This document shows, piece by piece, positions 5,238 to 39,006 of a stretch of 64,000 nucleotides of DNA. The DNA comes from Candidatus Nomurabacteria bacterium (GTDB taxonomy: Bacteria; Patescibacteriota; Minisyncoccia; Phycocordibacterales; SBAW01), in the NCBI GenBank assembly GCA_943356495.1, contig CALRFF010000002.1, positions 165,875 through 229,874 of the forward strand, in the 5' to 3' direction. The translations under genes were made by a program, and so were the position numbers. Every line of letters starts with the position of its first letter. Positions within the stretch are counted from its first letter, which is position 1. A model generated the notes under the pieces. That model saw only the letters and a list, made by a program, of their open reading frames with translations, was not told where the DNA came from and searched no databases.

Positions 5238-5270
5238 TTTGACATCCCCTCGGGGCTGTATATACTGTCT
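5238..5270 (+). promoter_or_regulatory. Candidate rRNA promoter (TTGACA -35, TG-extended TATATACT -10) upstream of the 16S leader
   Basis: TTGACATCCCCTCGGGGCTGTATATACT read directly from the sequence. About 300-nt leader before the 16S 5' end. Confidence 0.4.
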
Positions 5271-5573: not shown

Positions 5574-7030
<1,457 letters not shown>

Positions 7031-7924: not shown

Positions 7925-7997
7925 GCGCGCTTAGCTCAGTTGGTAGAGCATTCGACTGATACTCGAAAGGTCCTAGGTTCGATCCCTAGAGCGCGCA
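7925..7997 (+). tRNA. tRNA-Ile (anticodon GAU)
   Basis: Cloverleaf folded by hand. Acceptor GCGCGCT/AGCGCGC, D-arm AGCTCAGTTGGTAGAGC, anticodon loop CTGATAC, T-arm CTAGGTTCGATCCCTAG. Preceded by a TG-extended -10 (TGCTACTAT at 7903-7911). CCA not encoded. Confidence 0.8.
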
Positions 7998-8032
7998 CCC
8001 GTCAGATCAGAAAAAGTATTCGTGTATTGAGT

Positions 8033-8114
8033 GGGCATGTGGCGGAACTGGTATACGCGTACGTCTCAGAAGCGTATCCCGTAAGGGTTGGGAGTTCGAG
8101 TCTCCCCATGCCCA
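8033..8114 (+). tRNA. tRNA-Leu (anticodon CAG), long variable arm
   Basis: Acceptor GGGCATG/CATGCCC, anticodon stem TACGT/GCGTA with loop CTCAGAA, variable stem-loop CCCGTAAGGG, T-arm GGGAGTTCGAGTCTCCC. Confidence 0.75.
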
Positions 8115-8204
8115 CTCAGTGCAGGAACCGGTAGTGTCCCCATACTCGTTTTTGTAGTTTTAATCGGGCGTATACTTATAGCTAGTTATTACTAGTGGTC
8201 TTTT

Positions 8205-22689: not shown

Positions 22690-22707
22690 ATAGCCTATAC
22701 TCACCCT

Positions 22708-23304
22708 ATGCGCATGCCTTGGGACGCGTTTGTAGACAGCCATATACGCGAGTTGGCCCGCAAGCGGGACGTGCTTGATGTGGGCGGCGGGGAGCGGTTT
22801 CAAAAGTGGCTGGCTCCGTACCGCGACCTGTTTGCCGGGTCTAACTACCGTACGTTCGACACCGACAAAGTGTCGGGGGCGGACATCGTGGGCGACATAC
22901 ATCACCTGCCGATGCCGGAGCATTCGCTCGACGGGATTATCTGCCAAAGCGTACTCGAGCATGTACACGACCCGCTGCGCGCGATGGCCGAACTTAAGCG
23001 CGTGTTGCGCCCCGGCGGCGCCATGCTGTTGTATGTGCCGTCTATATATCCGTATCATGCACGCAAAGGCGCGTACGGCGACTATTGGCGGTTTTTTGAC
23101 GACACCATAGCGCTTTTATTCGAAGGTTTTGCCGAGGTCGCGGTGTGCAAACGCGGCGGGTACTTTACCGCACTTTCTTTTTTTGTACCGTTCCAACACA
23201 AGATGCGCTTTGTACTCGACCCGCTGGCCTATGTGCTTGATACGTTGCTTGGGACCGTGCGCCGCACGACCACCGCGGGGTACTACGTGTACGCCATCAA
23301 ATGA
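22708..23304 (+). CDS. Class I SAM-dependent methyltransferase
   Basis: VLDVGGGE (motif I), SLDGIICQSVLEHV, LRPGGAMLLYVP - Methyltransf_11-like. Confidence 0.7.
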   Translation: MRMPWDAFVDSHIRELARKRDVLDVGGGERFQKWLAPYRDLFAGSNYRTFDTDKVSGADIVGDIHHLPMPEHSLDGIICQSVLEHVHDPLRAMAELKRVLRPGGAMLLYVPSIYPYHARKGAYGDYWRFFDDTIALLFEGFAEVAVCKRGGYFTALSFFVPFQHKMRFVLDPLAYVLDTLLGTVRRTTTAGYYVYAIK

Positions 23305-24464
23305 AACAACCGCTTACGGTAGTATATGTAGCCGATACGCGGCTCCCGACCGAAAAGGCTCACGGCCTCGCGCTTATGAAGCTGTGCGAAGCGTTTGCCC
23401 GCGCGGGTACGCGCGTCGAGGTGGTGGCGCCGCGCCTGCTGCGTTTGAGTAAAAAAGACCCGTACGAGTATTACGGCGTCAAGCCGCTCTTTACCATTAC
23501 GCGCGTGCCGAGCATCGACCTGCACCCGCTGCGCGTTGCACGGCGCTTGTTGTATCTGGTGCAGATGGTCTCCTTTTCGCTGTGTGCCGCGGCGTACTGC
23601 GCGTGGCAGTACCGTGGCCGTACCGTGGTTTACTTTTCGCACGACTATATGCCGCTATACTTCCTCTCGTTTCTTGGAGTGCCGGTGTATTACGACATTC
23701 ATCACTTCCCCGGCACAAATTTTATGTATCGCCGGATTATGCGCCGTGCAGCCGGGTTTGCGGTGCAGACTAAATGGAAAATAGACGAGTTGCACCGCCG
23801 GTTCGGCATAGCAAAAGAAAAAATAGTGTATTGGCCGAACGGCACCGACGTAGACATCTTTGCGATAGAAGAGAGTGTTGCCGAGGCGCGGCACGCGGTC
23901 GGTTTAAAGGCGCAGGGCCCCGTGGCGCTGTATGTGGGGCAATTTTTTGCATGGAAGGGCGTGGCCACGCTGGTGCGCGCGCTCGCGCATATGCCCCCGG
24001 CCGTACAGTTGGTGCTGGTCGGGGGCACCGAGGAAGACACCAAGCAATTGCAAAAAGAAGTACCCGAAAGCAACAACCCGCGTATATTGTTTGTGCCGTT
24101 TCAAAAACGGGAGACTGTCCCGCATTGGCTGCGCGCCGCCGATGTGCTCGTCTTGCCCAACACCGGCACGCAGGCGGTGTCCAAGTATTACACTTCGCCT
24201 ATGAAATTGTTCGAGTATTTGGCCTCCGGCCGCCCCGTAGTCGCTTCGGACTTACCGAGTATCCGAGAAATTGTGTCTGAAGATACGGCGTACTTGGTGG
24301 CGGCCGACGACCCCGCGGCGCTTGCCCGCGGCATTACGCATGCGCTTACAGACGTGGCAGACGCGGCCGCGCGTGCGGCCCGCGCGCGGGTGCATGGCGC
24401 GCGCTTTACGTGGGACGCCCGCGCACAGGCCATACTGCCGCACCTGCAGCACTGCTCGCTATGA
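23301..24464 (+). CDS. Glycosyltransferase family 4
   Basis: N-terminal GT4 donor domain, C-terminal FEYLASGRPVVASDLPSIREIV. Confidence 0.75.
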   Translation: MKQPLTVVYVADTRLPTEKAHGLALMKLCEAFARAGTRVEVVAPRLLRLSKKDPYEYYGVKPLFTITRVPSIDLHPLRVARRLLYLVQMVSFSLCAAAYCAWQYRGRTVVYFSHDYMPLYFLSFLGVPVYYDIHHFPGTNFMYRRIMRRAAGFAVQTKWKIDELHRRFGIAKEKIVYWPNGTDVDIFAIEESVAEARHAVGLKAQGPVALYVGQFFAWKGVATLVRALAHMPPAVQLVLVGGTEEDTKQLQKEVPESNNPRILFVPFQKRETVPHWLRAADVLVLPNTGTQAVSKYYTSPMKLFEYLASGRPVVASDLPSIREIVSEDTAYLVAADDPAALARGITHALTDVADAAARAARARVHGARFTWDARAQAILPHLQHCSL

Positions 24465-25549
24465 AGATTTGCTTTCTTGCGCACAATTTGCGGCACGACA
24501 ACGGCGGGGGAGTCTTTTCCGCGCATATTATCGAGGCGGCCCAAGCGGCGGGCGCCGAGGTTGTGGCCCTTACGACTCTGCAGTCGGGTAAACCCTACGA
24601 ACGGCCGCTGTTTACCGGCGGCACGTTTGCGCTGGTACGCGATTTGCTGCGCGTGCGCGCCGCGCTTAAAGAAGCCGATATCGTGCATCCGCTCGACACC
24701 TACCCCTACGGCGTTATCGCCGCGTTTGCGGGGTTGGGGCTAAAAAAGAAGTTTATTATCACGGCGGTCGGTACCGGCGCAATAGCCGGACTCTACCGGT
24801 GGCCGAAAAGTTGGCTCATGCGCTTTGCATATGCGCGGGCGGACACGGTGGTTGCTATAAGCACGTTCGTCCGCGACGAAATACAAAAACGGATACCGCA
24901 CCTTGCTATCAAGGTCATTACCCACGGGGTAGAGTACGAGCAGTTTGCCGCACCGGCGCCGGAGTATGTCCCCGCTGCCGCGCACCGGCCGTATATTATT
25001 TCGGTCGGCTCGTTGCGCTGGCGTAAGGGATACAAGTTTAGTATCCGCGGCTTTGCCGAGATACGCGCGCAGATGCCCTCGCTTCACTACCTTATCGTCG
25101 GCAAACGCTATACGGAAAAAGAGTTTAACAATCTCACCGCGCTGATAACGCAACTGGGACTCCAAGATGCAGTGACTATATTGGAGCAGGTAGACTCCGC
25201 CGAAGATATGCGCGCGCTGTATCAGGGCGCCGAGGCCTTTGGATTGTTGTCGCAAAATGACGACCATGACGTAGAAGGCTTTGGCCTTGTCTTTTTGGAG
25301 GCGGCCGCCGCGGGCTTGCCGGTGGTCGGCAGCAGCGGCTGCGGCGTCGCGGATGCTATGGCCGACGGCATTAACGGGTATTTGGTGCCGCCGCGCGACA
25401 CACACGCCTTTGCCCAAGCGATGCTGAAGATACTGCAGACGCCGGGTTTGCGCGGCAAGATGGCGGACGCATCGCGCGCCTTTGCACGCGACAATACATG
25501 GGACAAAAAAATCCCGCAGTACCTAGCGCTGTGGGGGTTACCGCACTAA
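24461..25549 (+). CDS. Glycosyltransferase family 4
   Basis: Start at MKICFLAHNL (ATGA overlap). FLEAAAAGLPVVGSSGCGVADAMADGINGYLVPP. Confidence 0.8.
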   Translation: MKICFLAHNLRHDNGGGVFSAHIIEAAQAAGAEVVALTTLQSGKPYERPLFTGGTFALVRDLLRVRAALKEADIVHPLDTYPYGVIAAFAGLGLKKKFIITAVGTGAIAGLYRWPKSWLMRFAYARADTVVAISTFVRDEIQKRIPHLAIKVITHGVEYEQFAAPAPEYVPAAAHRPYIISVGSLRWRKGYKFSIRGFAEIRAQMPSLHYLIVGKRYTEKEFNNLTALITQLGLQDAVTILEQVDSAEDMRALYQGAEAFGLLSQNDDHDVEGFGLVFLEAAAAGLPVVGSSGCGVADAMADGINGYLVPPRDTHAFAQAMLKILQTPGLRGKMADASRAFARDNTWDKKIPQYLALWGLPH

Positions 25550-26091
25550 CGTTGTTTCGATATTTTCGGCGGGGAAGAGTCCCGAAAGGAAAGACAGTTC
25601 GTACAGGCGCATGCGGCGGCGGTTGGCGTTTACCCAGCGCTCAACCAACCGGTTAAGGAACAGCAGTTTTGAGCCGCGGGGGAAGGTGATGCGCATGCGC
25701 GCGATAGAGGAAAAATGAAAGTCGGTGTAGTAGGTAAGCGCGTGGTTAAACTCGGGCTCGGCCAAAAAAAACTCAAACGTATCGATACTAAAAGTTTTGC
25801 AGTGGGTCGGGTCGACCGCGTTGTTGCGCGAGGTGTAGTGCGGCACGCGCACCACCAAGCGGCCTCCCGGCGCAAGGACGCGATGGATTTCTTTAAGCAG
25901 GGGCAGGTAGTCTATATGCTCGAGCACGTCTTGGCACAACACCTCGTCGCACGAGCCGTCGGCAAAAGGCAGGGGCGCCGCCGCCACGTTAAGTACCATG
26001 TCGACGCCGGGGAGCGCTACGGAGTCTATGTTGACGTAGCCTTGCCGTATATCGCGTCCGCATCCGAGGTTGAGTTTTTGTGCCTCCATGT
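25538..26091 (-). CDS. Class I SAM-dependent methyltransferase (one of only two minus-strand genes in the island)
   Basis: LNLGCGRD (motif I), VLCQDVLEHIDY, LAPGGRLVVRVPHY. Start at MEAQK. Confidence 0.7.
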
Positions 26092-26111
26092 TAGGGTATA
26101 CTAGCGTAAAA

Positions 26112-27137
26112 ATGGCGAAAAAACGAGCATTTATAACAGGCATTACGGGGCAGGACGGGTCGTATTTAGCCGAGCTTCTGCTTGCAAAAGGCTATACCGT
26201 GTACGGCCTTATCCGCCGCAGTTCCAACGATCCGTTGGTGCGGCTGCCTCAGCGTGTCCGCAAAGACATTACCTACTTGTACGGCAACTTGCGCGACAGC
26301 GCCTCGCTGCGCCGCGCGCTCGAGGTGGCGCGGCCGGACGAGATATATAACTTGGCGGCCCAATCGGATGTCGGCGTCTCTTTTAAAATTCCTGAAGAAA
26401 CGTTTGAGATAAACTACCACGGTCTTGGCCGGCTTATACACGAGGCGGTCGCGATTAACCCGAAGGTCCGCATATATCAGGCTTCCACCAGCGAAATGTA
26501 CGGTTCGACCAAGCCGCCGCAGAACGAGCGCTCGCCCTTTAATCCTGTGTCGCCGTACGGCGAAGCAAAGCTGCGCGCACATGAAGACTATGTGGTCGGC
26601 TACCGCGACCGGTACGGCCTGTTTATCTGCTCGGGCATACTTTTTAATCACGAGTCGCCGCGGCGCGGGGAACATTTTGTCACCCGCAAAATAACGCAGT
26701 CGCTCGCCAAGATAAAACTGGGGCTCCAAAAACAGCTCGAGCTCGGAAACCTAGACGCCAAGCGCGACTGGGGGTTTGCCGGCGATTATGTAGAGGCGAT
26801 GTGGCGCATGCTCCAGCAAAAAAAGCCGGTTGACTATGTTATCAGTACGGGCGAAACGCACACGGTGCGTGAGTTTTTGGCCGCGGCCGCTAAGGCACTG
26901 GGTATGACGCTGACGTTTACAGGCAAAGGTCTGCGCGAAACCGCGATGGATGAAAAAGGCCGCGTGCTGGTAAAAATAAATAAAAATTTTTACCGTCCGC
27001 GCGAGGTCCACAGCCTGCGCGGCGACAGCCGCAAGGCGCGCAAAGAACTCGGTTGGGATCCGCAGGTTTCCTTTGACGAGCTGGTAACCATGATGGCGCT
27101 TGCCGACTTTGAGCGCGTGCGACGGGAGCAAAAATGA
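26112..27137 (+). CDS. gmd: GDP-mannose 4,6-dehydratase
   Basis: RAFITGITGQDGSYLAELLLAKGYTVYGLIRRSS plus conserved YGEAKL and NHESPRRG motifs. Confidence 0.9.
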   Translation: MAKKRAFITGITGQDGSYLAELLLAKGYTVYGLIRRSSNDPLVRLPQRVRKDITYLYGNLRDSASLRRALEVARPDEIYNLAAQSDVGVSFKIPEETFEINYHGLGRLIHEAVAINPKVRIYQASTSEMYGSTKPPQNERSPFNPVSPYGEAKLRAHEDYVVGYRDRYGLFICSGILFNHESPRRGEHFVTRKITQSLAKIKLGLQKQLELGNLDAKRDWGFAGDYVEAMWRMLQQKKPVDYVISTGETHTVREFLAAAAKALGMTLTFTGKGLRETAMDEKGRVLVKINKNFYRPREVHSLRGDSRKARKELGWDPQVSFDELVTMMALADFERVRREQK

Positions 27138-28354
27138 ATATCGCCATTATCGTCAGGCGCCTGGACCGCATCGGGGGCGTTGAGCGGCAGGCGTTGTGTC
27201 TTGCCAAGGGCTTGCGCGAGCGCGGACACACCGTAACGCTGTATACTTTTTTCTATAACCCCGAGGCGCTGTTCGGCGGGCTCCGTGATGTTGCGCCGGT
27301 CGTCTCTTTGGGCGCACGGCAGGGCGCGCTGGAGCGGTTTTTGCTTGCGGTGCCGCTCGTCTCTTTTTTTGTGATGGCATATGTCGACCGCCGCCGCTCG
27401 CACGCATTGGCGTTGCGCATTGACCGGTCGACCGAGGTGTTAAACCCCCACGACCAAGTGGTGTATCAGGTGGCGCACTATTATAAAACGTTGGTGCGCG
27501 ACATACCGTCGGTGTGGACGATGGACGACTTGCCCACGCGCGCGTTTACCCGTTACCGCGATGCCGCCTGTTCGGGCCGTAGTGTAGGACTTTTGCATCG
27601 TGTCGTGGACCGCGCGCTTGACGCGGTGGCGGTGCTGCCGTTTATCCCCGCGCAAACAGCGGTTGCCGTGCTTGATGAGCGTGACAAAGCGTGGGTGCGC
27701 GAGCAGTTTGGTAAAGACGCAGTCGTGGTGCGCCCCGGCGCCGACACTGCGGGCTTTGCCTACCGCGCCCGCACGGCGGCAGGGCGTCCGCTGCGTATGC
27801 TTATGGCGGGGATTTATTTCCCGCATCGCCGGTTCGAGGACGGTATTAGAGCGCTCGCACTGTTGCGCGAGCGCGGCATAGAGGCGACGCTTACTATTGT
27901 CGGGCGTTCGCACGCGGCCGATCCGTACGTGTTGCGCGTGCGCGCATTGATAACACAGTTGGGTCTTGAGTCGCAGGTGACTTTGCGGGGAGAAGTAACC
28001 GAAGAAGAGCTGCACGCGCTCCATAGCGCGGCGGACGCGTTTGTGTTTGCCAGCCATTTGCAGTCGTGGGGTATTGCCGTATTTGAGGCCATGGCCTCGG
28101 GTACGCCGGTAGTGGTGTCGCGTAGTGCGGGGGCTTCTGAGGTGCTTACCCACGGACAGACGGCTTTGTTGGTGAAGCCGCTTTCGCCGGTGCAGATTGC
28201 CGACGCCGCAGAGGCATTGGCGGGCGACCCCGCGCTGTATGGGCGCTTAAGCGCGCAAGGCAGGGCGTTTGTCGAGGGGAACCTGCGCTGGGATACAATG
28301 GTTACACAGATGGAGGCGCTTCTGCGGAGCGCCTCTGCTACGTATGGACACTAA
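27134..28354 (+). CDS. Glycosyltransferase family 4
   Basis: FEAMASGTPVVVSRSAGASEVL motif. Confidence 0.75.
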   Translation: MNIAIIVRRLDRIGGVERQALCLAKGLRERGHTVTLYTFFYNPEALFGGLRDVAPVVSLGARQGALERFLLAVPLVSFFVMAYVDRRRSHALALRIDRSTEVLNPHDQVVYQVAHYYKTLVRDIPSVWTMDDLPTRAFTRYRDAACSGRSVGLLHRVVDRALDAVAVLPFIPAQTAVAVLDERDKAWVREQFGKDAVVVRPGADTAGFAYRARTAAGRPLRMLMAGIYFPHRRFEDGIRALALLRERGIEATLTIVGRSHAADPYVLRVRALITQLGLESQVTLRGEVTEEELHALHSAADAFVFASHLQSWGIAVFEAMASGTPVVVSRSAGASEVLTHGQTALLVKPLSPVQIADAAEALAGDPALYGRLSAQGRAFVEGNLRWDTMVTQMEALLRSASATYGH

Positions 28355-29723
28355 TATTTCTCTTACAAAAAAATTTCTGACGGGAGAGTCGTACTACCGG
28401 TTTTCTTCCATTGCCACAAAAGGGCTCGGCTTTATGACGACCTTGTTCGTCTTGCACTCGCTGACGCTGTACCAGTACGGCGTCTTTCAACTGTTGTTGT
28501 CTATCTTTGGAGCGGGTATGGTGGTTTTTTATTTGGCGGGCAATGTCGTGGGCAACGACATACAGCGTTTTATAGCGGCAGGGCAGGAGGGGCGGGCAAA
28601 AAAACTTTTTACCGAGTACAATATCATACGCTTAAGCCTTGGCGTGCTGCTGACGCTCGGCATGGTGCTCGGCGCACCGCTGTTGTCGCGCTGGTACCAG
28701 CCGGACTTTATCCAGATGCTCCAGATAGTAGGGTTGTACTTTTTTGTCGAAGCGCTTTCAGGCTCGCTGTTGTCGTTGGTCAAGGTACGCCTTAACTTCA
28801 GGGCGGCGGCCATGGAGCCCGCCTACGGCAAAGTGGGCCAACTCGCTTTGCTTATAGTATTTTCGCTCACCATAGGCATCTCGACGCGCGAGGCGCTTAT
28901 TGCGGGGCTTATCGGCAACATAGTCGCGGCGCTTACCATGCTCCCCGGCGCCCGCGCCTCGTGGCGGCAATGGCGCGGTGTGCCGCTCCATCATGTGTCG
29001 GTGCTGTGGGGAGTATTGCGCGGCTACGGCAAGTGGGATACTGCGCGGCAAGTCGTGTCTAATTTGGTTTCCAACATACAGCCGTGGCTTATCAAAGTAT
29101 TTATCTCTACCGAAGCGGTGGCTATTTATAGCGTTGCGCTTACCATGGTTGATCTTAGTAAAACCTTTTTGTCTTTTAATACGCTCAGTTCTATCGTGCC
29201 GCGCCAGCTTGCCGACGCGGCGGCTTCGCGCAGGACCTTTGTGCTTAGCATTAAATACCTGTTGTGGATGGCGGTAGTCTGTACCGCCGTAGCGCTTGTC
29301 GCGGGCCCGCTTGGTATAGCGACATTCTTCCCTAAATACCTGGCGGCACTCCCGTATTTTGCCGCGCTGGTGTGGACCGTGCCGTTGGTGGTGTTTACCA
29401 TGCAGGCGGAAACGTTTTTGGTGGCGCTGCGCGAACAGCGGTTTCTCTTTTTGGCGTCGCTGTCGCGCAATGCCGTAACGCCGTTGCTTTTGGTCGCGAC
29501 GCTGCCGGTGCTTGGTTTGTGGGGGGTGGTGGCGACCAAACTGCTGGTAACCGCAAGTTTAATTGTGGCGGAGTTGCGATACCTGTTTCGCAAGCACGCG
29601 CATCTACGGTTTGTGCCCCGCGAACTCCTTACGTTTACCGCCGCCGATACGGTGTTTTTGACCGGTCTTTGGCGCCACAGCCGCGAGCTCCTATCGGTCA
29701 AAGTACGCTCTGTGTTAGGATAA
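28344..29723 (+). CDS. Oligosaccharide/polysaccharide flippase (Wzx-like, MOP superfamily)
   Basis: About 12 predicted hydrophobic helices. Start at MDTNIS. Confidence 0.6.
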   Translation: MDTNISLTKKFLTGESYYRFSSIATKGLGFMTTLFVLHSLTLYQYGVFQLLLSIFGAGMVVFYLAGNVVGNDIQRFIAAGQEGRAKKLFTEYNIIRLSLGVLLTLGMVLGAPLLSRWYQPDFIQMLQIVGLYFFVEALSGSLLSLVKVRLNFRAAAMEPAYGKVGQLALLIVFSLTIGISTREALIAGLIGNIVAALTMLPGARASWRQWRGVPLHHVSVLWGVLRGYGKWDTARQVVSNLVSNIQPWLIKVFISTEAVAIYSVALTMVDLSKTFLSFNTLSSIVPRQLADAAASRRTFVLSIKYLLWMAVVCTAVALVAGPLGIATFFPKYLAALPYFAALVWTVPLVVFTMQAETFLVALREQRFLFLASLSRNAVTPLLLVATLPVLGLWGVVATKLLVTASLIVAELRYLFRKHAHLRFVPRELLTFTAADTVFLTGLWRHSRELLSVKVRSVLG

Positions 29724-29727
29724 TTTT

Positions 29728-30432
29728 ATGAGCGGCAAGGAGCCTTTTATGACCGTGGCCGAGATGCGCGCCAACCCCGAGCGGGTGCGGGCGCTTGATG
29801 TCAGCCCCAAAGACGGCAAGGCAAAAAGCCGCCGTTTTGACGGTTCAACCCGCCCGTCGCTTGTGTATGAGTTTGTAGACAAAGACGCCAAGTTGCTCGA
29901 GCTGGGGCCCTTCGGCGGCCCGCTCACCAAAGAGCTGCAGGAGCAGGGCTACAACCGCATCTCGACGCTCGATTTTATAGACTTGCTCGAGCTGCCTGAC
30001 CGCTCGAAGCTCGAAGCTATAGGCGTCGTCGATTTTAATCGCGACACCTTCCCGCACCCGGACAACACGTTTGACGCGGTAGTGTCCTTCGGTATGTTTG
30101 AGCATTTGGAAAATCCGTTCCATGCGGCGCGCGAGGCGGCGCGCGTGCTTAAGCCCGGAGGTGTGTTTGTTATGGCGATACCGAACGTATTCCATATCGT
30201 CAGCAAGTTAGTCTTTTTGCGTCGGGGGATGTTCCCGCGCTGGAGTTACGGCAATAACCATATTTCCATACTGCCGCACGGCGTGTTTGAAAAGACGATC
30301 CTGCGCGATTTTAAGCTTAAAAAGACCCTGTACTACAAACCTTTCTTGCATTGGTTAGGAGCAAACGCAAAATATCTGCCCGCCAACGAGTGGTTTAGCG
30401 ACTACGTCGCGTACGTGCTGGTAAAAAAATGA
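29728..30432 (+). CDS. Class I SAM-dependent methyltransferase (paralog A)
   Basis: FDAVVSFGMFEHLENP, LKPGGVFVMAIPN. C-terminal 110 aa almost identical to 31368-32078. Confidence 0.65.
   Translation: MSGKEPFMTVAEMRANPERVRALDVSPKDGKAKSRRFDGSTRPSLVYEFVDKDAKLLELGPFGGPLTKELQEQGYNRISTLDFIDLLELPDRSKLEAIGVVDFNRDTFPHPDNTFDAVVSFGMFEHLENPFHAAREAARVLKPGGVFVMAIPNVFHIVSKLVFLRRGMFPRWSYGNNHISILPHGVFEKTILRDFKLKKTLYYKPFLHWLGANAKYLPANEWFSDYVAYVLVKK
30100..30313 (+). repeat. Near-identical 214-bp direct repeat copy A (inside methyltransferase paralog A)
   Basis: Aligned by eye to 31746-31959 with only about 6 mismatches, while flanking gene sequence is much more diverged. Confidence 0.8.
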
Positions 30433-31361
30433 TAACGCGCATAAAAAATGCCTTGGCGCGTCGGTATTGGCGGGTGCGCATGAGCCCCCCGCTGTGGCGT
30501 TTTATCAACCGTGGCCGCAGGCGCACGTGGCAGGCGTTGGCTCTGCGGGAGGCGCCGCACGAGCGGCGCATTGCCGACGCATTACGTGCCGACGGTATCG
30601 CGTTTTCATCGCTCCAAGAGCTGGGGCTCGACCATCTTTGGCCGGCCATGCAGGAAAACGCGCGTGCGCTCAAACAACGCTGGGTCAGTGACGCGTCGTT
30701 TAGAGAACATATTTTAGGCGAACTTGAAAGTAAAGAAATAGCCAAAGGCGCCAAAAAAACATTTTTACTTCCGCTCTACGGCGGCGGCTGGACCACGCCT
30801 ATGCTTGAACCGGAAAATCCGTACATACAGTTTTCTCTTTCCGACACGGTGCTTACTATTGCGGGGATGTACCTCGGTCTTATGCCGAAGTTTGACTCGT
30901 TTAACCTTTCTGAGACGGTGTTGGTCGCGGGGGATGCAAAATTTTCCCAGCGATGGCACCGCGACCCGGAGGACCGCCGGCTGCTCAAAGCTTTTATTTA
31001 TGTCTCCGACGTGCTCGACGACGGTGTGGGGCCGTTTACGTATGTGCGGGGAAGTCAGGAGGGCGGCAGGTACCACCACCTTTTTCCGCAGCAATTTCCG
31101 CAGGGGAGTTATCCGGCGCCCGAGGCACTTGAGCGCACGGTGCATCCCAAGGATATCCAAAAAGCTTTCGGAAAAGCGGGCACGGTGGTGTTTGCCGACA
31201 CCGCGGGTCTGCATCGCGGCGGCTTTAGCACCACGCGGGAGCGTATGATGTACACCGCCGGATACGTCGCTGCAACCTCGACCCAGCCGCGCAAGTTTAC
31301 TATAGGGGAGGCCCCCGCCCATCTATCGGTATTGGCGGACGCGTCGCTCAGAGTATACTAA
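30429..31361 (+). CDS. Phytanoyl-CoA dioxygenase (PhyH)-like Fe(II)/2OG oxygenase family protein
   Basis: WHRDPED (HxD) and a distal HRGG histidine. Size and spacing fit PhyH. Confidence 0.45.
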   Translation: MITRIKNALARRYWRVRMSPPLWRFINRGRRRTWQALALREAPHERRIADALRADGIAFSSLQELGLDHLWPAMQENARALKQRWVSDASFREHILGELESKEIAKGAKKTFLLPLYGGGWTTPMLEPENPYIQFSLSDTVLTIAGMYLGLMPKFDSFNLSETVLVAGDAKFSQRWHRDPEDRRLLKAFIYVSDVLDDGVGPFTYVRGSQEGGRYHHLFPQQFPQGSYPAPEALERTVHPKDIQKAFGKAGTVVFADTAGLHRGGFSTTRERMMYTAGYVAATSTQPRKFTIGEAPAHLSVLADASLRVY

Positions 31362-31367
31362 ACCCTT

Positions 31368-32078
31368 ATGCGCATCGAACCTTTTACACTTATCCGCGGT
31401 CGCCACCCCTTTGTAACGGTCGAAGAGCTCCGTCGCGATTCCACGCTCCTTTTAGAGCCCAAGGGCGATTGGACGGGGCCGCGGTTTGAGGGTTCTACAA
31501 CCACCTCACTGGTCGAAAAGTACTGCCCTAAAGAAAGGCCAATACTTGAATGCGGCCCTATTTGGGGAAAGTTTACAGAATGGCTGCAGAATTACGGCTA
31601 CCGCGATGTACGCGTACTCGATTTTGCAGATATGCTCCGGTGGGGCGACCGCGCCAAGATGCAGTTTGCGGTAACCGATTTTAACAAGGACCGCATGCCG
31701 TATGCGGACAATACCATCGGGAGTGCGGTCGCGTGGGGGATATGCGAGCATTTGGAAAATCCGTTCCATGCGGCCCGCGAGGTAGCACGCGTGCTTAAGC
31801 CCGGAGGTGTGTTTGTTATGGCGATACCGAACGTATTCCATATCGTCAGCAAGTTGGTCTTTTTGCGTCGGGGGATGTTTCCGCGCTGGAGTTACGGCAA
31901 CAACCATATTTCCATACTGCCGCACGGCGTGTTTGAAAAGACAATTCTGCGCGATTTTACGCTTGTCGAAACACGCTACTACAAGCCGTTCTTGCATTGG
32001 CTGGGTGCAAAGGCAAAGTACCTGCCGGCAAACGAGTGGTTTAGCGATTATGTCGCCTATGTGCTGGTAAAAAAATAA
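31368..32078 (+). CDS. Class I SAM-dependent methyltransferase (paralog B)
   Basis: N-terminal half about 35% identical to paralog A, C-terminal half about 95% identical. Confidence 0.65.
   Translation: MRIEPFTLIRGRHPFVTVEELRRDSTLLLEPKGDWTGPRFEGSTTTSLVEKYCPKERPILECGPIWGKFTEWLQNYGYRDVRVLDFADMLRWGDRAKMQFAVTDFNKDRMPYADNTIGSAVAWGICEHLENPFHAAREVARVLKPGGVFVMAIPNVFHIVSKLVFLRRGMFPRWSYGNNHISILPHGVFEKTILRDFTLVETRYYKPFLHWLGAKAKYLPANEWFSDYVAYVLVKK
31746..31959 (+). repeat. Near-identical 214-bp direct repeat copy B (inside methyltransferase paralog B)
   Basis: See copy A. Copies are 1.65 kb apart in the same orientation. Confidence 0.8.
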
Positions 32079-32091
32079 CTACACGAGCCGC

Positions 32092-33441
32092 ATGAAGACC
32101 CTGCTTATTACCAGCTTTCATCCGGTTGTGTTGCGCAACCTGCTGATGACCGAGGCCCTGAGTCTGCTTATGGCGCGCACCGACGTGCGGGTGGTGGTGC
32201 TTGTGCCGGGATATAAAAAAGAGTATTTTGCCGCGCAACTTCAGTACCCGAACCTTATAGTCGAGGGCATTACGCTCGGTTCGCCTTCAAAACAGTTTGT
32301 TACGCTTATTATAAAACGGCTCGCAAAACTTTCTATCGATACTGCATCGGCCAAAATTCAGCGCCGTATGAAGTGGGAGCGCGAGGGCAAGTGGTGGTAC
32401 TATGCGGCCGCTGCCGTACCGGCATGGTTGTCACGTCACGGGTGGTACCGCGCCGCGTTGCGCTATGCCGACCGCGTACTTACCGCTACAAATCGCTACG
32501 AGGAACTCTTTAACACCTACGCTCCCGACTTGGTATTGGTAACCGACGTGCAGAACGAGCGCGATGTCGAGGTGTCGCAATACGCCAAGCGCCGCGGTAT
32601 CCGCACCTACGCGCTGGTGCGCAACTGGGACAACCTTACAAGTCACGGGCTTATCCGTAGCGTGCCGGATGTGCTGCTGGTGGGGAGCGGCGAGTTGCGT
32701 CGGCAGGCAATACATTTAAACGGCCTGCGGCAGGAGCGGGTGCGGTTGGTGGGCAACCCGCACCATGACCGTTGGGTTAAAGGATCACCCCAAAGTCGCG
32801 AGGCTTTTTTTGCCGAGCACGGTTTTGACCAAAAAAAGCCGCTTATTCTCCTCGCTCTTATCGGCGATTGGTATATCCCCGACAACGATACCGACGCCTA
32901 CTTGCTTGAGCTTGCTGCAACGTGGGACGCAAATGTGATGGTGCGTTTTCATCCGACGGTAGAAGTGGCGGCGTTGCGGGACGCCAAACCAGCCCCTAAT
33001 ATGGCGTTTGACCGGCCGGGACAGGCGTTTAGTAGCGAGTATGCCGACCGTGTACTCGACACCAAAGACGACGAGCGGCTTATGTGCGAGCTTTCTTACA
33101 GTGACATGGTGGTGTGCGGGCCGACTACGTTGGGCATGGAGGCGATGTTGTTCGGCAAGCCGGTTGCGCTTATTAACTTTCACCGCCGCAGCCGTTCGCT
33201 CAAAGAGGGTATTGTACTGTACGAGTATGACCACCTGCGTTTTGTGCGGCAGTATCGCGCCGCGTGGTTGACCGAAAGCGCCGAAGAGCTCGGCCGCGCG
33301 ATAACAACCTATCTCAAAAATCCTGAGTTACATGCAGAGGGACGCGCGGTTGTGGCAAATGCCTACGGCGGCCCGCAGGACGGCCGCTCGGGCAAGCGTC
33401 TTGCGCAGGAGCTGCTCGACGGCCTCGGGCTCTTGACGTAA
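32092..33441 (+). CDS. CDP-alditol:polymer alditol-phosphotransferase-like protein (TagB/TagF 'Glyphos_transf' family), paralog 1
   Basis: KPLILLALIGDWY, VMVRFHPT, SYSDMVVCGPTTLGMEAMLFGKPVALINFH resemble the TagF K-x-vLYAPTwR / HP / ADvLITDYSSvfFDf motifs. Confidence 0.4.
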   Translation: MKTLLITSFHPVVLRNLLMTEALSLLMARTDVRVVVLVPGYKKEYFAAQLQYPNLIVEGITLGSPSKQFVTLIIKRLAKLSIDTASAKIQRRMKWEREGKWWYYAAAAVPAWLSRHGWYRAALRYADRVLTATNRYEELFNTYAPDLVLVTDVQNERDVEVSQYAKRRGIRTYALVRNWDNLTSHGLIRSVPDVLLVGSGELRRQAIHLNGLRQERVRLVGNPHHDRWVKGSPQSREAFFAEHGFDQKKPLILLALIGDWYIPDNDTDAYLLELAATWDANVMVRFHPTVEVAALRDAKPAPNMAFDRPGQAFSSEYADRVLDTKDDERLMCELSYSDMVVCGPTTLGMEAMLFGKPVALINFHRRSRSLKEGIVLYEYDHLRFVRQYRAAWLTESAEELGRAITTYLKNPELHAEGRAVVANAYGGPQDGRSGKRLAQELLDGLGLLT

Positions 33442-33467
33442 ACGCCCGCCAGCGACACCATCACCCT

Positions 33468-35168
33468 ATGAACGTACTCGGACTCAAAATAGCTAACCAC
33501 GACACGGGCGCCGCGCTTATTGCGCACGGGCGCGTCGTCGCCGTCTCCGAAGAGCGGCTTAACCGGGTTAAGCACTCGTTTAATATGTTCCCCACGCTCG
33601 CGATAGACTACTGCCTTGCGGAGTTGGGGCTTACACCGGCAGAGCTGGACCTTATTGTTATCGATCAAACCGGCGTGCGCGAAGAGGCACCGATGAAAGA
33701 AATTTTTGCGCGCGAGACAGGTGCCCGCTTTGCGGGCGTGCGGGTGGAGGTTATCAACCACCACGACGCGCACGCGGCATCGGCTTTTTTTGCATCACCG
33801 TTTAGCGAGTCGGCGGTGCTGGTGTACGACGGCTCGGGCGAGCGCTTTTTGACGCAAGAAGGCGTAGTGGTAGAAACAGAGACGCTCTACCAAGGCCGCG
33901 ACAACACGCTTACCGAACTGCAGAAAGTGCGCCACTTGCGCGACGGACGCCGCGCGACCATCGGCATCGGCAAAGTGTACAGTCTGCTTTCAAGCTCGTA
34001 CCTCGGCTTCGGCAACTACAACGAAGGCAAAATGATGGGGTTAGCGCCGTTTGGGGACCTGTCGTTGCTACAAAAAATCCCCGAACACCGCTGGTGGAAA
34101 GAGGTAGACGGCGAAATTGTCTGCAACGCGCAGATATTCCCCGCATGGCGTATTCCGCTTATCGGCGGCGCATTGGCGGCGCTGTGGCACCGCGCACGTT
34201 TGGGCAGCAGTGTCTTTGCCCCTATTATCCTGCCGCGCCCGGCGCGCAATGGGGAGCAGCTACCCGACACGTACTATGCAAGCGTGGCGCGCACCGCCCA
34301 GCATGTGCTCGAGGCCGTTGCGGTCGCGCTCGGTTTAAAACTTAAAGCGCTGACCGGCTCGGATAATTTGGCGATAGCCGGCGGCATCGGCCTTAACATC
34401 GACGCCAATAAAAACTTTTTAGACAAAGCGGGTTTTAAGCGCTTGTTCGTACAGCCCGGCAGCTCCGACAGCGGAGTACCGCTTGGGTGCGCGCTGTGGG
34501 GCTACCATGTACTCCTTAAACAGCCGCGCTTTTGGGAGATGAAGCATGCCTATCTCGGACGCGCCTACTCTACCCTAGAGGTTGAAGCGGCCCTAGACGC
34601 TTTTAAAGATAAGGTGCGCTGGAGACGCTCCGCCACGATAGCCAAAGACGCGGCCGCGCTGTTGGCCGACGGCAAAGTGGGGGCGTGGTTTCAGGGCGGG
34701 AGCGAGTATGGGCCGCGCGCGCTCGGGCACCGCTCGATTATTGCCGATGCCCGCCGCCCCGACATGGCCGACACGCTTAACTATCGCGTCAAGCACCGCG
34801 AGGCGTGGCGGCCGTTTGCCACCTCGATGCTTAAAGACAAGTTGAGCGAGTGGTTTGACCTTGCGCACGAAAGTCCGTACATGCTGCTTGCGGCGCAGGC
34901 GCTCCCCGGCGTAGCCGCGCAGGTGCCGTCGGTCATACACGTCGACAACACCTCGCGCATACAAACCGTGACCAAAGAAGACAATGGGCGGTACTTCGAG
35001 CTGATAGACGAGTTTTACAAACTGACCGGTGTGCCTATTATCCTCAACACCTCCTTTAACCTCGGCGGCGAGCCTATTGTCGAAAGCCCGCAAGACGCCC
35101 TGCGCACCTTTACCTCGACCGACATGGATTACTTGGTGCTCGAGGAGTATGTGGTAGAGAAGCTCTAA
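33468..35168 (+). CDS. Carbamoyltransferase (NodU/CmcH/TobZ family)
   Basis: N-terminal LGLKIANHDTGAALI (ASKHA-like) and C-terminal EYGPRALGHRSIIADARRP ... NTSFN..GEPIV, characteristic of O-carbamoyltransferases. Confidence 0.85.
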   Translation: MNVLGLKIANHDTGAALIAHGRVVAVSEERLNRVKHSFNMFPTLAIDYCLAELGLTPAELDLIVIDQTGVREEAPMKEIFARETGARFAGVRVEVINHHDAHAASAFFASPFSESAVLVYDGSGERFLTQEGVVVETETLYQGRDNTLTELQKVRHLRDGRRATIGIGKVYSLLSSSYLGFGNYNEGKMMGLAPFGDLSLLQKIPEHRWWKEVDGEIVCNAQIFPAWRIPLIGGALAALWHRARLGSSVFAPIILPRPARNGEQLPDTYYASVARTAQHVLEAVAVALGLKLKALTGSDNLAIAGGIGLNIDANKNFLDKAGFKRLFVQPGSSDSGVPLGCALWGYHVLLKQPRFWEMKHAYLGRAYSTLEVEAALDAFKDKVRWRRSATIAKDAAALLADGKVGAWFQGGSEYGPRALGHRSIIADARRPDMADTLNYRVKHREAWRPFATSMLKDKLSEWFDLAHESPYMLLAAQALPGVAAQVPSVIHVDNTSRIQTVTKEDNGRYFELIDEFYKLTGVPIILNTSFNLGGEPIVESPQDALRTFTSTDMDYLVLEEYVVEKL

Positions 35169-35169
35169 G

Positions 35170-36543
35170 ATGAAAACTGTTTTTATTACGAGCTTTCATG
35201 CGCTTATATCGCGCAATATCCTAATGGCCGGCGTACCCGCGCTGTTGGCTAATACACACCGCGTGGTGCTGTTGGTCCCGCAGGAAAAAGTATCCTACTT
35301 TGCCGACGAGTTCGGCCTGCCTGCCGGCAAGGCAGGCGGTGGCGAAATTATAGTTGAAGGCGTGGATACGACGCTTACCCGCCGCGACCGCCTGCTGCGG
35401 TATGCAGTGCTGGCAATTACCCGTACCAAAGGCCTTGCGATAAAAAGACGCGCTAAATATGCCGCCGGCGGGAACTTACTTTCCTATATCGGCTCGGCAC
35501 TGCCCTCGGCGCTGCTGCGCGGCGCGCGGCCGGTTGTTGCCGCTTTACGTTTTTTTGACCCATTGGTGCTGCGCTCGCGCCGTTTTGCACCGTTGTTTGC
35601 AAAGTATCAGCCGGCGCTCGTGTTTGCTACCGACCTGCAAAACGAAATGGATGTGCGCCTGCTCGAAGAGGCAAAGGCCCGCGGTGTTGCCACTGCGGGC
35701 ATGATCCGCTCGTGGGACAACGTGTCATCAAAGGGTTTGTTGCGCGCGGTGCCCGCGCTGGTGGTGGTACACAACGAGTCTTTGAAGCGCCAAATGATTG
35801 AAAAAAATTTCATACCAGCAGACACTATTGCGGTGGTAGGTATCCCGCATTACGACCGGTATGCGGAGCCCGCCGTTACCGTGCGGGAAGATTTTTTTGC
35901 CCCGCTCGGGCTCGATAAAAACCGGAAACTTGTTTTGTTCGCGCCGATAGGCGACCGCTATATCCGCGACAACAAGCTCGATGCGCTTATACTCGAGACA
36001 CTTTCCCACCTCGATGTAAACGTTCTGGTGCGTTTGCCGCCGACCGACACTATCGCGTACCTGCCGGTGCCGAATAATCGCGCGCATATAGTAGTGCAAA
36101 AAACCGGCGACCGTCCGTGGAAGAATGCTCATGGAGGGGGAGCTTCTAAACTCAATGAGATAACGCGCCAAGACGAACAGACGCTTATAGACTCGCTCTA
36201 CTACGCCGACGTATTAGTGACAGGGCAGTCGACCATGGTTATCGATGCGGCGGCCTTTGATACCCCGAGCATTATTATCGACTTTGACACCGAGCCGCGC
36301 GAGTACTACGACAGCATGCATCGCTACTACGACTACGAGTACTATCCGCCGGTTATACAAAGCGGCGGGGTGTTTGTGGCGCGCTCACCCGAGGAGTTGC
36401 GTATACTGGTCGAGTCTTCGCTTACGGACCGCGCACTCGGCCACGATGGCCGTATGCGGCTGTTTGCTGAGCAAGCGGGGGAGTTAGGGGGCGGTTCGGC
36501 GGAACGACTTGTGGAGGCGTTGCGGTCGGCGATATACTCCTAA
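35170..36543 (+). CDS. TagB/TagF-family alditol-phosphotransferase-like protein, paralog 2
   Basis: RKLVLFAPIGDRY, VLVRLPPTD, YYADVLVTGQSTMVIDAAAFDTPSIIIDFDTEPREYY. Confidence 0.45.
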   Translation: MKTVFITSFHALISRNILMAGVPALLANTHRVVLLVPQEKVSYFADEFGLPAGKAGGGEIIVEGVDTTLTRRDRLLRYAVLAITRTKGLAIKRRAKYAAGGNLLSYIGSALPSALLRGARPVVAALRFFDPLVLRSRRFAPLFAKYQPALVFATDLQNEMDVRLLEEAKARGVATAGMIRSWDNVSSKGLLRAVPALVVVHNESLKRQMIEKNFIPADTIAVVGIPHYDRYAEPAVTVREDFFAPLGLDKNRKLVLFAPIGDRYIRDNKLDALILETLSHLDVNVLVRLPPTDTIAYLPVPNNRAHIVVQKTGDRPWKNAHGGGASKLNEITRQDEQTLIDSLYYADVLVTGQSTMVIDAAAFDTPSIIIDFDTEPREYYDSMHRYYDYEYYPPVIQSGGVFVARSPEELRILVESSLTDRALGHDGRMRLFAEQAGELGGGSAERLVEALRSAIYS

Positions 36544-36547
36544 TATC

Positions 36548-37807
36548 ATGGAAGGGCCTCTTATAAGCGTATATATACCCACCAACGGGCGTCCGGAGCT
36601 GGAGTATGCGATTGATTCGATACTCAATCAGGATATACCGGGAGTCGAGATAGTGGTGAGTAGTTGCGCCAAACAAGAGGAGGTTGCTCGGCTCATCAGG
36701 AGATATAATAACCCTTTAATTAAAAACGCTCCCTTGCCGGAGGGGATGCCGACTAACGGTACTTTTGATTATGCGGCGCGACACACGACCGGGCGGTATA
36801 TTTTTTTCCTGAGCGACGACGACTGTTTTTTGCCGGGGGCGCTTGCTTTGATGGTCGCCGTGGCGCGCTCTACCGGCGCCGACCTAGTGGCGGGCAACCA
36901 CCTGTACTTTTACGACAACAGGCATGCGCGCCGCTATTTGTGGCATGCGATGGGCGTCGTTCCGTACACCGGCACTACACGCACTTTTAATCCGTTTCAG
37001 GCTATCCGGGCGTTTTTTGCCTTCGATCGCATAGGTCCCAAGCATCAAATTCCGCGTCTCCATCCGTCTACGATTATGGTCGAGCGGGGCGTGATGGAGC
37101 GGGCGTGGAAACAGATAGGGACGATTATGTTCGACGATTTGCCGAACGGGCTTTCGCATCAGCCGATTCTTCTCGCGCATGCGCAGCGCTGCGTGTCGGT
37201 TGATTACCCCGTGGTCATCGTCGGACGCCTCGGCGTCTCTATGAGTCAGGTGTGGTCGACGGCTGCCCGCAACCGCTTTCGCAAAACACCGTTTCCTTTG
37301 GAATATTCGCCGGTCATCGGCTACACGCGCATTAACGGCTCGATAGAAAATTATCTCCGCCTGCAAAAACGGTATCCGGAGGTGTTCGGTGATATTCCCA
37401 TCAATTACAATGTATTTGCCCGTATTTATGTGCAGGAGTTGCGGTACTTGGACATGGAGTGGAACATGATGGTGCCGGTATGGCGCGACGCCTTTGCGTT
37501 TTTGCGCACCTTGCCGGAGCCGGTACGCACCGAACTGCTCGCCAAAGCGCGGCGTTTTGCGCTTCTGTATCCTGTCGTATTCGTTGCGCGGCGCACGGGG
37601 CTGCATCACCTGTGGCGGGTACTGCTCGGACGGCGGATCGCCGCTCGCGCTCCGTCTCCTGCGGTGGAGTTTGCACACAAGCGGGAATTTTATATACCGC
37701 TTGCAAAGTATCCAACGGTTCGCACCATCAGCGATGTGGCGGCCAACGCCTTTTCTATTTTGCGCCATGAGATAGGCCAAGGCCTTCCTTCGGCACCAAG
37801 TATATGA
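36548..37807 (+). CDS. Glycosyltransferase family 2 with extended C-terminal domain
   Basis: ISVYIPTNGRPELEYAIDSILNQ, and FLSDDD (DxD). Confidence 0.7.
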   Translation: MEGPLISVYIPTNGRPELEYAIDSILNQDIPGVEIVVSSCAKQEEVARLIRRYNNPLIKNAPLPEGMPTNGTFDYAARHTTGRYIFFLSDDDCFLPGALALMVAVARSTGADLVAGNHLYFYDNRHARRYLWHAMGVVPYTGTTRTFNPFQAIRAFFAFDRIGPKHQIPRLHPSTIMVERGVMERAWKQIGTIMFDDLPNGLSHQPILLAHAQRCVSVDYPVVIVGRLGVSMSQVWSTAARNRFRKTPFPLEYSPVIGYTRINGSIENYLRLQKRYPEVFGDIPINYNVFARIYVQELRYLDMEWNMMVPVWRDAFAFLRTLPEPVRTELLAKARRFALLYPVVFVARRTGLHHLWRVLLGRRIAARAPSPAVEFAHKREFYIPLAKYPTVRTISDVAANAFSILRHEIGQGLPSAPSI

Positions 37808-39006
37808 AGATACAACACTGCAGACTCTGTAAGGGGACTTTGAGCGAACCCAAACTCAAATTTCCACCCACTCCTCTGGCGAACGAGTATTTAAAAGACC
37901 CTACTCCGCAGGAACTTTTTCCGCTCGAGGTGTGCGTATGTACGGTGTGCGGGCATTATCAGCTGAACGAAAGCGTCGACCCTGCGCGGCTGTTTCGCTA
38001 TTATCAATATGTAGCGGGGCATTCGGCGGTTAACAAAGAGCATTTTGTACGCTACGCCGGGCATGTGGTAGAGCGTTTTGCGTTGCCGGAGGGCAGCGCG
38101 GTGCTCGATATCGCCAGCAACGACGGCATATTGCTGCAGGCGTTTAAAGAGCGGGGTATGCGGGTACTCGGCATTGATCCGGCGGAGAACTTGGCCGCGC
38201 TGGCGAATGCAAACGGCATCGAAACCATCCCCGACTTTTTTACCGAGGCGAAAGCGTTAGAAATGCGCGCACACTACGGCACATTCGACCTTGTCACGGC
38301 AAACAATGTCTTTGCGCATGTGCCCGATTTGGAGGACTTTGCAAAAGGGGTACAGGTCATGCTCGCGCCCCGCGGCGTATTTTCTTTCGAGGTGTCTTAT
38401 TTTCTCGATGTGTGTGACAAGACGCTGTTTGACACTATTTATCACGAACACTCCTCGTACCACACTCTTACGCCGCTCGTTCCGTTTTTTAAACGGCTCG
38501 GTATGGAACTCTTTGACGTAGAGCATATCGAAAATCACGGGGGCTCTGTCCGGGTGTTTGTTACGCGCGCGGGCGCGCGGCCCGTTGAGTTGCAGGTTGC
38601 TGAGCTTTTGGCAAAAGAGCAGGATATGGAAGGCAAGGTTGCACGGCTGGGGGTAAAAGTGGAGGAGTTGGGGCAGGCTTTGCGCGCCAAACTCAATGAG
38701 CTCAAGAGTGCGGGCAAGCGGATAGCAATTTTCGGCGTGCCGGCAAAGGCCACGACGTTGATATACGCGCTCGGCATCGACGAAAGAACAATAGAGTTTG
38801 CGGTAGATGATACAACGCTTAAACAAGGCACCTATACGCCGGGCAAACATATCCCGATACTGCCCTCGAACGCCATCTATGAGCGCAAGCCCGATGTCCT
38901 GCTGGTGCTGGCGTGGAATTTTGCCGATAGTATCATGCAGAAGCATGCGGCATTTACGGGTACATGGATCGTCCCTATCCCCGAATTGAAAGAATACGGT
39001 ATATGA
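37804..39006 (+). CDS. SAM-dependent sugar C-methyltransferase (TylCIII/NDP-hexose 3-C-methyltransferase-like: Zn-ribbon + MT + C-terminal domain)
   Basis: N-terminal CRLC...CTVCGH zinc ribbon, VLDIASNDG motif I, and a C-terminal domain typical of Methyltransf_13/14 C-methyltransferases. Confidence 0.65.
   Translation: MKIQHCRLCKGTLSEPKLKFPPTPLANEYLKDPTPQELFPLEVCVCTVCGHYQLNESVDPARLFRYYQYVAGHSAVNKEHFVRYAGHVVERFALPEGSAVLDIASNDGILLQAFKERGMRVLGIDPAENLAALANANGIETIPDFFTEAKALEMRAHYGTFDLVTANNVFAHVPDLEDFAKGVQVMLAPRGVFSFEVSYFLDVCDKTLFDTIYHEHSSYHTLTPLVPFFKRLGMELFDVEHIENHGGSVRVFVTRAGARPVELQVAELLAKEQDMEGKVARLGVKVEELGQALRAKLNELKSAGKRIAIFGVPAKATTLIYALGIDERTIEFAVDDTTLKQGTYTPGKHIPILPSNAIYERKPDVLLVLAWNFADSIMQKHAAFTGTWIVPIPELKEYGI

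Follow-up and report, generated by a model that had tools for sequence, protein, structure and literature searches.

In a glycan gene cluster of a Candidatus Nomurabacteria bacterium (GenBank assembly GCA_943356495.1, contig CALRFF010000002.1, positions 165,875 to 229,874 of the forward strand; these 64,000 nucleotides (nt), numbered from 1, are called the window hereafter), two paralogous methyltransferase genes, MT-A and MT-B, flank an oxygenase gene, ORF-X. MT-B is a chimera, in which the S-adenosylmethionine (SAM)-binding and N-terminal parts of one subfamily (B type) are joined to the alphaD-beta5-cap-beta6-beta7 half of another (A type). It very probably arose by partial gene conversion with A-type sequence, the most likely donor being MT-A. 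The three genes are co-directional, head to tail on the + strand, and the ATG of ORF-X overlaps the MT-A stop codon TGA (ATGA). Public gene calls start MT-A at 29749, which gives a protein of 227 amino acids. The genes and the parts of the repeat that the two methyltransferase genes share are as follows.

29728-30432, + strand: MT-A, 234 amino acids, class I SAM-dependent methyltransferase of the A type, from which the transferred sequence came
30100-30313, + strand: repeat core in MT-A, coding for EHLENP, alphaD, beta5, cap and alphaE
30314-30330, + strand: divergent patch at beta6 in MT-A, KLKKTL in MT-A versus TLVETR in MT-B, 9/18 nt different
30331-30432, + strand: 3' tail of the repeat in MT-A, loop and beta7 to the stop codon TGA
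30429-31361, + strand: ORF-X, 310 amino acids, PhyH-type Fe(II)/2-oxoglutarate oxygenase, by fold and not by Pfam
31368-32078, + strand: MT-B, 236 amino acids, chimeric methyltransferase
31368-31745, + strand: MT-B N half, native B-type, with the N-terminal extension, beta1-beta4 and the SAM-binding motifs
31746-32078, + strand: MT-B C half, A-type conversion tract in place of the native B-type C half
31746-31959 (core), 31960-31976 (patch) and 31977-32078 (tail), + strand: parts of the conversion tract in MT-B
31746-31763, + strand: 5' junction in MT-B, EHLENP codons, with its counterpart at 30100-30117 in MT-A

A repeat finder reported one direct repeat of 300 nt (30091-30390 and 31737-32036, offset 1646 nt), and blastn of the repeat gave 331 nt at 90.3% identity (E = 5e-130), with no third copy in the 64-kb window. 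The copies are not uniformly diverged, in line with the initial annotation, a reading of the sequence alone that had proposed this self-comparison. That annotation had also described 30100-30313 and 31746-31959 as near-identical, with about 6 differences; the segment is real, but 205 of the 214 nt match, leaving 9 mismatches (95.8% identity). From 30314 to 30432 there are 24 mismatches in 119 nt against the MT-B counterpart (79.8%; core versus remainder of the repeat, p = 1e-5), and the similarity continues to both stop codons, as had been noted, both proteins ending in ...ANEWFSDYVAYVLVKK. In the tail 14 of 99 nt differ, yet 32 of 33 codons specify the same residue. The longest identical run between the copies is 68 nt (30142-30209), and they can be told apart at 33 sites. 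Upstream of 30100, nucleotide identity is about 50%; the N halves of the proteins are strongly diverged, at 41.5% identity over aligned columns and not the approximately 35% estimated earlier.

The same contrast is found at synonymous sites. By the Nei-Gojobori method, the core (30100-30312) has a synonymous divergence (dS) of 0.19 and a non-synonymous divergence (dN) of 0.006. The last 39 codons have a proportion of synonymous differences (pS) of 0.66 and a dN of 0.07, and in the N halves pS is 0.74 (saturated) and the non-synonymous proportion (pN) 0.39. Because synonymous divergence also falls in the tract, selection at the protein level cannot account for the mosaic.

The direction of the transfer is given by the wider family. 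A search of 5.8 billion proteins returned 26 close family members (E <= 4e-59), which form an A type and a B type, differing over their whole length, plus a third, less clear group. The A type has the N terminus MTVAEMRANP... and the C half NVFHIVSRLVFLRRGMFPRWSYGNNH...YYKPFLHWLG...DYVAYVL.KK, whereas the B type has the N-terminal signature ...RGRHPFVTVEELRR... and the C half NVLHLKSRLKFL..GIFPRWNVKDNH...PNWNLYSN...GNYVVYVLRKKPFEPYA. This distinctive B-type C half is common to five B-type orthologues (P0003, P0004, P0008, P0012 and P0016); MT-B is without it and carries the A-type C half instead. The N half of MT-B is 78%, 67% and 64% identical to the B-type proteins P0015, P0003 and P0004, while its C half is 93.5% identical to that of MT-A and 81-83% identical to A-type proteins of other organisms, against just 49-56% for the C halves of B-type orthologues.

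These differences were put to a discordance test, in which the N and C halves of 27 proteins were compared with column bootstraps (1000 replicates). Mean identities of MT-B were 0.39 to the A group and 0.57 to the B group in the N half, and 0.81 and 0.52, respectively, in the C half. MT-B was closer to the A group in 0/1000 bootstraps for the N half and in 1000/1000 for the C half, even without the resident lineage, and was the sole discordant protein among those of the 27 that are clearly A or B type. MT-A is A-type in both halves (mean identity to the A group 0.71 in the N half and 0.79 in the C half). Its protein is 97% identical to the orthologue in the nearest relative (locus L003, assembly GCA_943354885.1), the donor type being unchanged. 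Since MT-A is A-type throughout, the transfer ran from A into B. The initial annotation had read the mosaic as conversion between paralogues, a view upheld by the synonymous drop and the orthologue comparison, to which the direction is now added.

It has to be asked whether the C halves are alike merely through strong constraint, with N halves evolving fast after an old duplication and no transfer at all. The C half is indeed more conserved across the family (the types are 50-60% identical to each other there, but 37-45% in the N half). However, the core shows a drop in synonymous divergence that the saturated N half does not, and B-type orthologues possess their own, clearly different C half, conserved among themselves at 66-75%. 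We consider this explanation hardly credible.

One further protein, P0009, encoded by an upstream methyltransferase gene in lineage L005 (7390-8127), has an A-like C half (0.70 versus 0.50) and an N half equidistant from A and B (0.45 versus 0.46), and could be a third subtype or a mosaic that formed earlier. A metagenome scan with the A-type motif LVFLRRGMFPRW gave a single match, an ordinary A-type gene (L093), with neither a second chimera nor a deletion variant.

The arrangement around the chimera is conserved. The order A-type gene, ORF-X, B-type gene, TagF-like transferase and carbamoyltransferase recurs in four other lineages (L003, L005, L009 and L089), so that, as the initial annotation had suggested examining, the methyltransferase pair flanks the oxygenase in related genomes too; the short contig L090 holds just the part from X to the transferase. 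In all five of these loci the B gene is fully B-type. In the window, the following features lie downstream of MT-B.

32079-32091, + strand: spacer 3' of the MT-B stop codon, 13 nt, probably a relic of the B-type tail (...FEPYA and stop)
32092-33441, + strand: GT449, TagF-like or BFO_1060-like transferase, which with the MT-B N half makes up a strain-variable cassette (31423-33466)
33468-35168, + strand: NodU/CmcH-type carbamoyltransferase (Pfam Carbam_trans_N and Carbam_trans_C), right-hand neighbour of the module of MT-A, ORF-X, MT-B and GT449

Both ends of the tract can be located. The 5' junction is the EHLENP-coding stretch, 18 nt that are identical in MT-A and MT-B and conserved in both types. 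Upstream of it MT-B reads AVAWGIC, which is B-type and identical to P0015; downstream it reads FHAAREVA, which is A-type, where B-type genes have HHFIRE.H. The switch is abrupt at the nucleotide level and falls just after beta4. The 3' end is the stop codon, as MT-B stops after ...VLVKK like the A type, without the B-type PFEPYA. In other genomes the B-type ending has its stop codon overlapping the start of the next gene, and the spacer before GT449 reads CTACACGAGCCGC followed by ATGA in the window, against GAGCCGTTCGC followed by ATGA in L090 and GAGTCCTACGC followed by ATGA in L005. This resemblance is suggestive of the spacer being a relic of a lost B-type tail, in which case a full B-type gene would have been overwritten in place. 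A tract reaching beyond the stop codon into the codons of ORF-X (shared AAAAAAATAAC with a 3-nt gap) was rejected, the match being too short.

We propose that MT-B was originally a complete B-type methyltransferase beside its downstream transferase, and that its 3' 333 nt, from the EHLENP codons through the stop, were overwritten by non-reciprocal homologous recombination. The donor would most likely be MT-A, the paralogue 1.6 kb upstream in the same operon. At the 5' end, the exchange would have used the short conserved stretch coding for EHLENP as its edge; at the 3' end, the conserved ...YVL.KK codons together with the A-type stop would have supplied the edge, removing the B-type ...PFEPYA tail. 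Possibly an older, long event was followed by a shorter one, as divergence in the patch and tail exceeds that in the core.

The window comes from a short-read metagenome assembly, and a false join, or methyltransferase genes of two strains collapsed into one, could in principle produce such a repeat. Judged from the assembled contigs, an artefact is unlikely; indeed, we give it only the slightest chance. The region 27000-36000 is 100% identical over 9 kb in two MEGAHIT contigs from separate ENA samples (ERZ27280196, 76.5 kb, and ERZ27280224). Six contigs read in the look-ups carry these exact proteins, the longest being 233 kb, and the contigs inspected all have both methyltransferase genes. 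NCBI holds one of the aligned contigs too, and proteins with exactly these sequences are known from NCBI and Logan assemblies. The contig name k141 was taken as a final assembly k-mer of 141. Every 141-nt stretch inside the repeat holds at least one of the 33 copy-distinguishing sites, the longest identical run (68 nt) being shorter than k, so a k-mer-141 graph should not merge the copies. In addition, neither open reading frame (ORF) is broken, and the frame is kept across the junction. Deletion of the oxygenase gene through recombination between the copies, raised earlier as a hazard, is plausible; no contig lacking one of the two methyltransferase genes was present among those inspected, although exact-sequence look-ups could not return most deletion recombinants.

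The age of the event was judged from the A alleles. Against MT-A, MT-B has 9/214 mismatches in the core, 9/18 in the patch and 14/99 in the tail; against the sister-strain A allele (A_L003) the corresponding counts are 10/214, 9/18 and 10/99. MT-A differs from A_L003 at 7/214, 0/18 and 4/99 positions, and from a distant orthologue (A_L093) at 51/213, 10/18 and 27/99. Because the tract is as far from MT-A as from A_L003, its age is about that of the divergence between the strain A alleles, and the event cannot be placed in the recent history of this genome. The term 'recent' used in the initial annotation therefore holds relative to the old A/B paralogy, but not for a tract with dS of about 0.19, as old as the A-allele split.

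Evidence on the number of events comes first from the beta6 patch, where MT-B keeps the A-type consensus TLVETR and the derived KLKKTL is found only in the A genes of the window and L003. Relative to the remainder of the C half, the patch carries a clear surplus of differences (p = 2.5e-6). With the patch set aside, the tail differs from the core at p = 0.004 with MT-A and p = 0.08 with A_L003. An older event spanning the entire C half and a later, shorter one of 214 bp would fit; a firm two-event model was rejected, its support being weak without the patch. Alternatively, a single event may have been followed by clustered change in the A lineage. Substitutions in that lineage are clustered: 4 changes in 12 nt are specific to the window MT-A (30355-30366), and 9 changes in 18 nt (KLKKTL, 30314-30330) are common to the A genes of the window and L003. 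These clusters could be micro-conversions or multi-nucleotide mutations.

A different donor, namely an A-type gene of another strain or locus and not the adjacent MT-A, is the more serious competitor, though we think it improbable. In variants of this scenario the chimera formed during exchange of the MT-B/GT449 cassette, or a B gene was joined to an A-type duplicate lying downstream of it through a deletion. It would fit the equidistance of the tract from the A alleles of the window and L003, and a tail diverged by 10-14% from either. It would also fit the locus being a recombination hotspot. Compared with L003, the window is 99.2% identical at 18633-26074, has no match at 26075-27505, is 87.3% identical at 27506-31422, has no nucleotide match at 31423-33466, and is 97.5% identical at 33467-40458. 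With identity dropping in such blocks, the chimera sits in the strain-variable centre of the glycan cluster. At the protein level, the MT-B N half is 51% and GT449 35% identical to L003, against 97-99% for flanking genes. Set against an outside donor, the spacer keeps an apparent B-type tail fused to the GT449 start, implying that a full B gene was already beside GT449, and no A-type gene lies directly upstream of a GT449-like gene in the fetched loci with the A-X-B order. Further, the post-patch tail protein is 33/33 identical to P0002, of the resident A lineage, where other A-type orthologues differ at 5-6 positions.

Conversion from MT-A remains our preferred explanation, and several points weigh against it. 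The relic argument is a 6-nt match noticed after the fact. The case for a genuine chimera is drawn from assembled contigs. Without the patch, the two-layer model has weak support, at p = 0.08 with A_L003. Finally, the core is no closer to the resident MT-A than to A_L003, and another A-allele donor could fit.

With respect to the enzyme itself, both proteins score above the gathering threshold for Pfam Methyltransf_11/23 (MT-A 55.7 bits, MT-B 43.1 bits, cut-off 21.2; E = 8e-15 for MT-A with Methyltransf_11), and neither reached an NCBIfam family. The AlphaFold2 model of MT-B (predicted local distance difference test score, pLDDT, 86) has a class I methyltransferase fold, with Foldseek E = 1e-12 to methyltransferase structures, and its predicted Rossmann fold matches 3l8d, 3cc8, 2avn, AtmM (6uv6) and RebM (3bus). 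In this model an N-terminal extension (1-57) precedes beta1-beta4 (59-62, 81-85, 98-102 and 117-123), with the junction at residue 127. There follow alphaD (132-142), beta5 (143-154), a less confident cap (159-185), alphaE (186-196), beta6 (197-205) and beta7 (228-235), and it is this alphaD-beta5-cap-alphaE-beta6-beta7 half that is shared with MT-A.

The SAM-binding elements lie in the diverged N half: the glycine-rich loop LECGPxxG (G63, G67) after beta1 and D85 after beta2, all invariant. The proposal of the initial annotation that the paralogues keep a common catalytic core and have diverged N-terminal substrate-recognition regions finds no support in this layout as it was worded, since the SAM-binding beta1-beta4 and the 57-residue extension are both in the diverged half. 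Residues invariant in this family occur on both sides of the junction (H128, E130, N131, N179 and H180), and in the model substrate contacts probably come from both halves. MT-B retains an intact ORF, all family-invariant residues and a confident in-silico fold, and is probably active. Its Pfam matches and predicted Rossmann fold resemble those of the small, Methyltransf_11-type sugar O-methyltransferases RebM and AtmM. Unlike these, the family has a degenerate glycine-rich motif (LECGPxxG) and its own EHLENP and NNH motifs.

Textbook cases of gene conversion include tufA/tufB, rRNA operons and antigen gene families. Conversion within a genome, by which bacterial paralogues evolve in concert, has been surveyed across prokaryotes (PMC6053082). 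MT-B resembles these in the non-reciprocal copying between nearby paralogues, in a segment that groups by genome while the rest groups by orthologue, in the lower synonymous divergence of the tract and in breakpoints within conserved sequence. It differs in having been converted in part, giving a stable hybrid of two functionally distinct subfamilies and not homogenized copies, and the conversion seems to have been rare, happening once (possibly twice) in a single lineage, unlike continuing homogenization. The mechanism is well known in bacteria, and the instance, seen in one lineage, is new yet unsurprising and leaves known principles unchallenged.

What MT-B adds is a natural hybrid enzyme made by partial conversion, for which the direction and both breakpoints are resolved, the 5' breakpoint lying between beta4 and alphaD. 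The halves of the A and B subfamilies would thus be exchangeable, and the junction marks a natural splice point for chimeras. That the swap was adaptive, the A-type cap/beta5-beta7 half altering the sugar or position methylated by MT-B alongside the replacement of GT449, is a doubtful suggestion. If it were true, conversion between oxygenase-flanking methyltransferases would be a way to vary the surface glycan between strains of these small-genome, probably host-attached bacteria.

ORF-X, which the initial annotation called a PhyH-like dioxygenase, has no Pfam match even at E <= 10, PF05721 included, and no NCBIfam match; the assignment stands on its predicted fold, its homologues and invariant residues. 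Among its 287 homologues, several carry PF05721 or are named phytanoyl-CoA dioxygenase, with precomputed PF05721 matches in several at 35-42% identity. H177-x-D179, H262 and R272 are invariant in 48 aligned homologues, in the order HxD...H...R expected of an iron-binding triad and a 2-oxoglutarate-binding arginine, roles that are putative here. The homologue profile gave only marginal matches to the PDB (E = 0.013 to 4xc9_A, a putative oxidase/hydroxylase), and a fold search was therefore needed. The AlphaFold2 model (pLDDT 94) shows a double-stranded beta-helix and, at the N terminus, an additional helical region some 110 residues long. The best PDB matches listed are all Fe(II)/2-oxoglutarate oxygenases (among them SnoN, GriE, HygX, EctD, PHYHD1, KanJ and AviO1), at E = 1e-10 to 1e-7 and template modelling (TM) scores of 0.5-0.6. 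A PhyH-type Fe(II)/2-oxoglutarate oxygenase is thus supported by fold and motif.

In its fold, its HxD...H plus arginine pattern and its place in a glycan-decorating cluster, ORF-X is like the sugar-tailoring PhyH oxygenases SnoN, HygX, AviO1 and KanJ. It differs from them in its 14-16% identity, in failing Pfam PhyH and in the N-terminal helical region. A hydroxylate-then-methylate step by ORF-X and the methyltransferases, as suggested earlier, is a guess. A second PhyH-like gene is present on the opposite strand in L005 (8117-8863, - strand), L009 (5934-6884, - strand) and L089 (1909-2859, - strand); its partner in L009 and L089 is a Methyltransf_21 gene, so oxygenase-methyltransferase pairs recur in these clusters. 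An apparent A-X fusion in L089 (539-residue ORF, 3889-5508) was set aside: the joint coincides exactly with a run of N (XXXX), which makes the fusion an artefact of masking or scaffolding.

Homologues of the module genes are almost exclusively found in genome bins of Patescibacteria (candidate phyla radiation, CPR). A profile scan of a genome collection with ORF-X returned 79 loci, mostly Patescibacteria and none above 43% identity. The A/B methyltransferase pair occurred in 0/79 of these and one family methyltransferase in 4/79, so only a narrow group has the A-X-B trio. Within the module GT449 is the most divergent gene, at no more than about 37% identity to any counterpart found, including that of the sister strain. 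Its matches to NCBIfam BFO_1060 and to TagF were all below the cut-off, and GT449 orthologues have faint Pfam Glyphos_transf matches. The carbamoyltransferase is 98.6% identical to the L003 protein and has the same position in L003, L005, L009 and L089.

The cluster of approximately 27 kb is co-directional and includes GT4 and GT2 glycosyltransferases, GDP-mannose dehydratase, epimerases, a C-methyltransferase and other methyltransferases, TagF-like enzymes, a cytidylyltransferase, the carbamoyltransferase and a flippase-like membrane protein, whose gene has no Pfam or NCBIfam match at threshold. The module from the A-type gene to the carbamoyltransferase lies partly inside the strain-variable part of this locus. 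O-antigen and capsule clusters are strain-variable, with conserved flanks and swapped central cassettes. The window cluster is similar, its flanks being near-identical to the nearest strain and its central blocks diverged or non-homologous; unlike those cases, its host is an uncultured bacterium, probably of the Patescibacteria judging from the distribution of homologues. A second strain-specific block, 26075-27505 (versus L003 7443-7781), comprises GDP-mannose 4,6-dehydratase and the 5' part of a GT4 gene; L003 has another GT4 there (58% protein identity) and no dehydratase.

Elsewhere in the window, a complete 16S rRNA gene (5567-7029) is followed by tRNA-Ile(GAT) (7925-7999) and tRNA-Leu(CAG) (8033-8115). 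As 23S or 5S rRNA gave no match within the 64 kb, the rRNA genes seem unlinked. Immediately upstream of the glycan cluster there are a TrwB/TraG-like coupling-protein ORF (15027-16775) and a ComEA-like helix-hairpin-helix protein with PKD domains (16759-17895).

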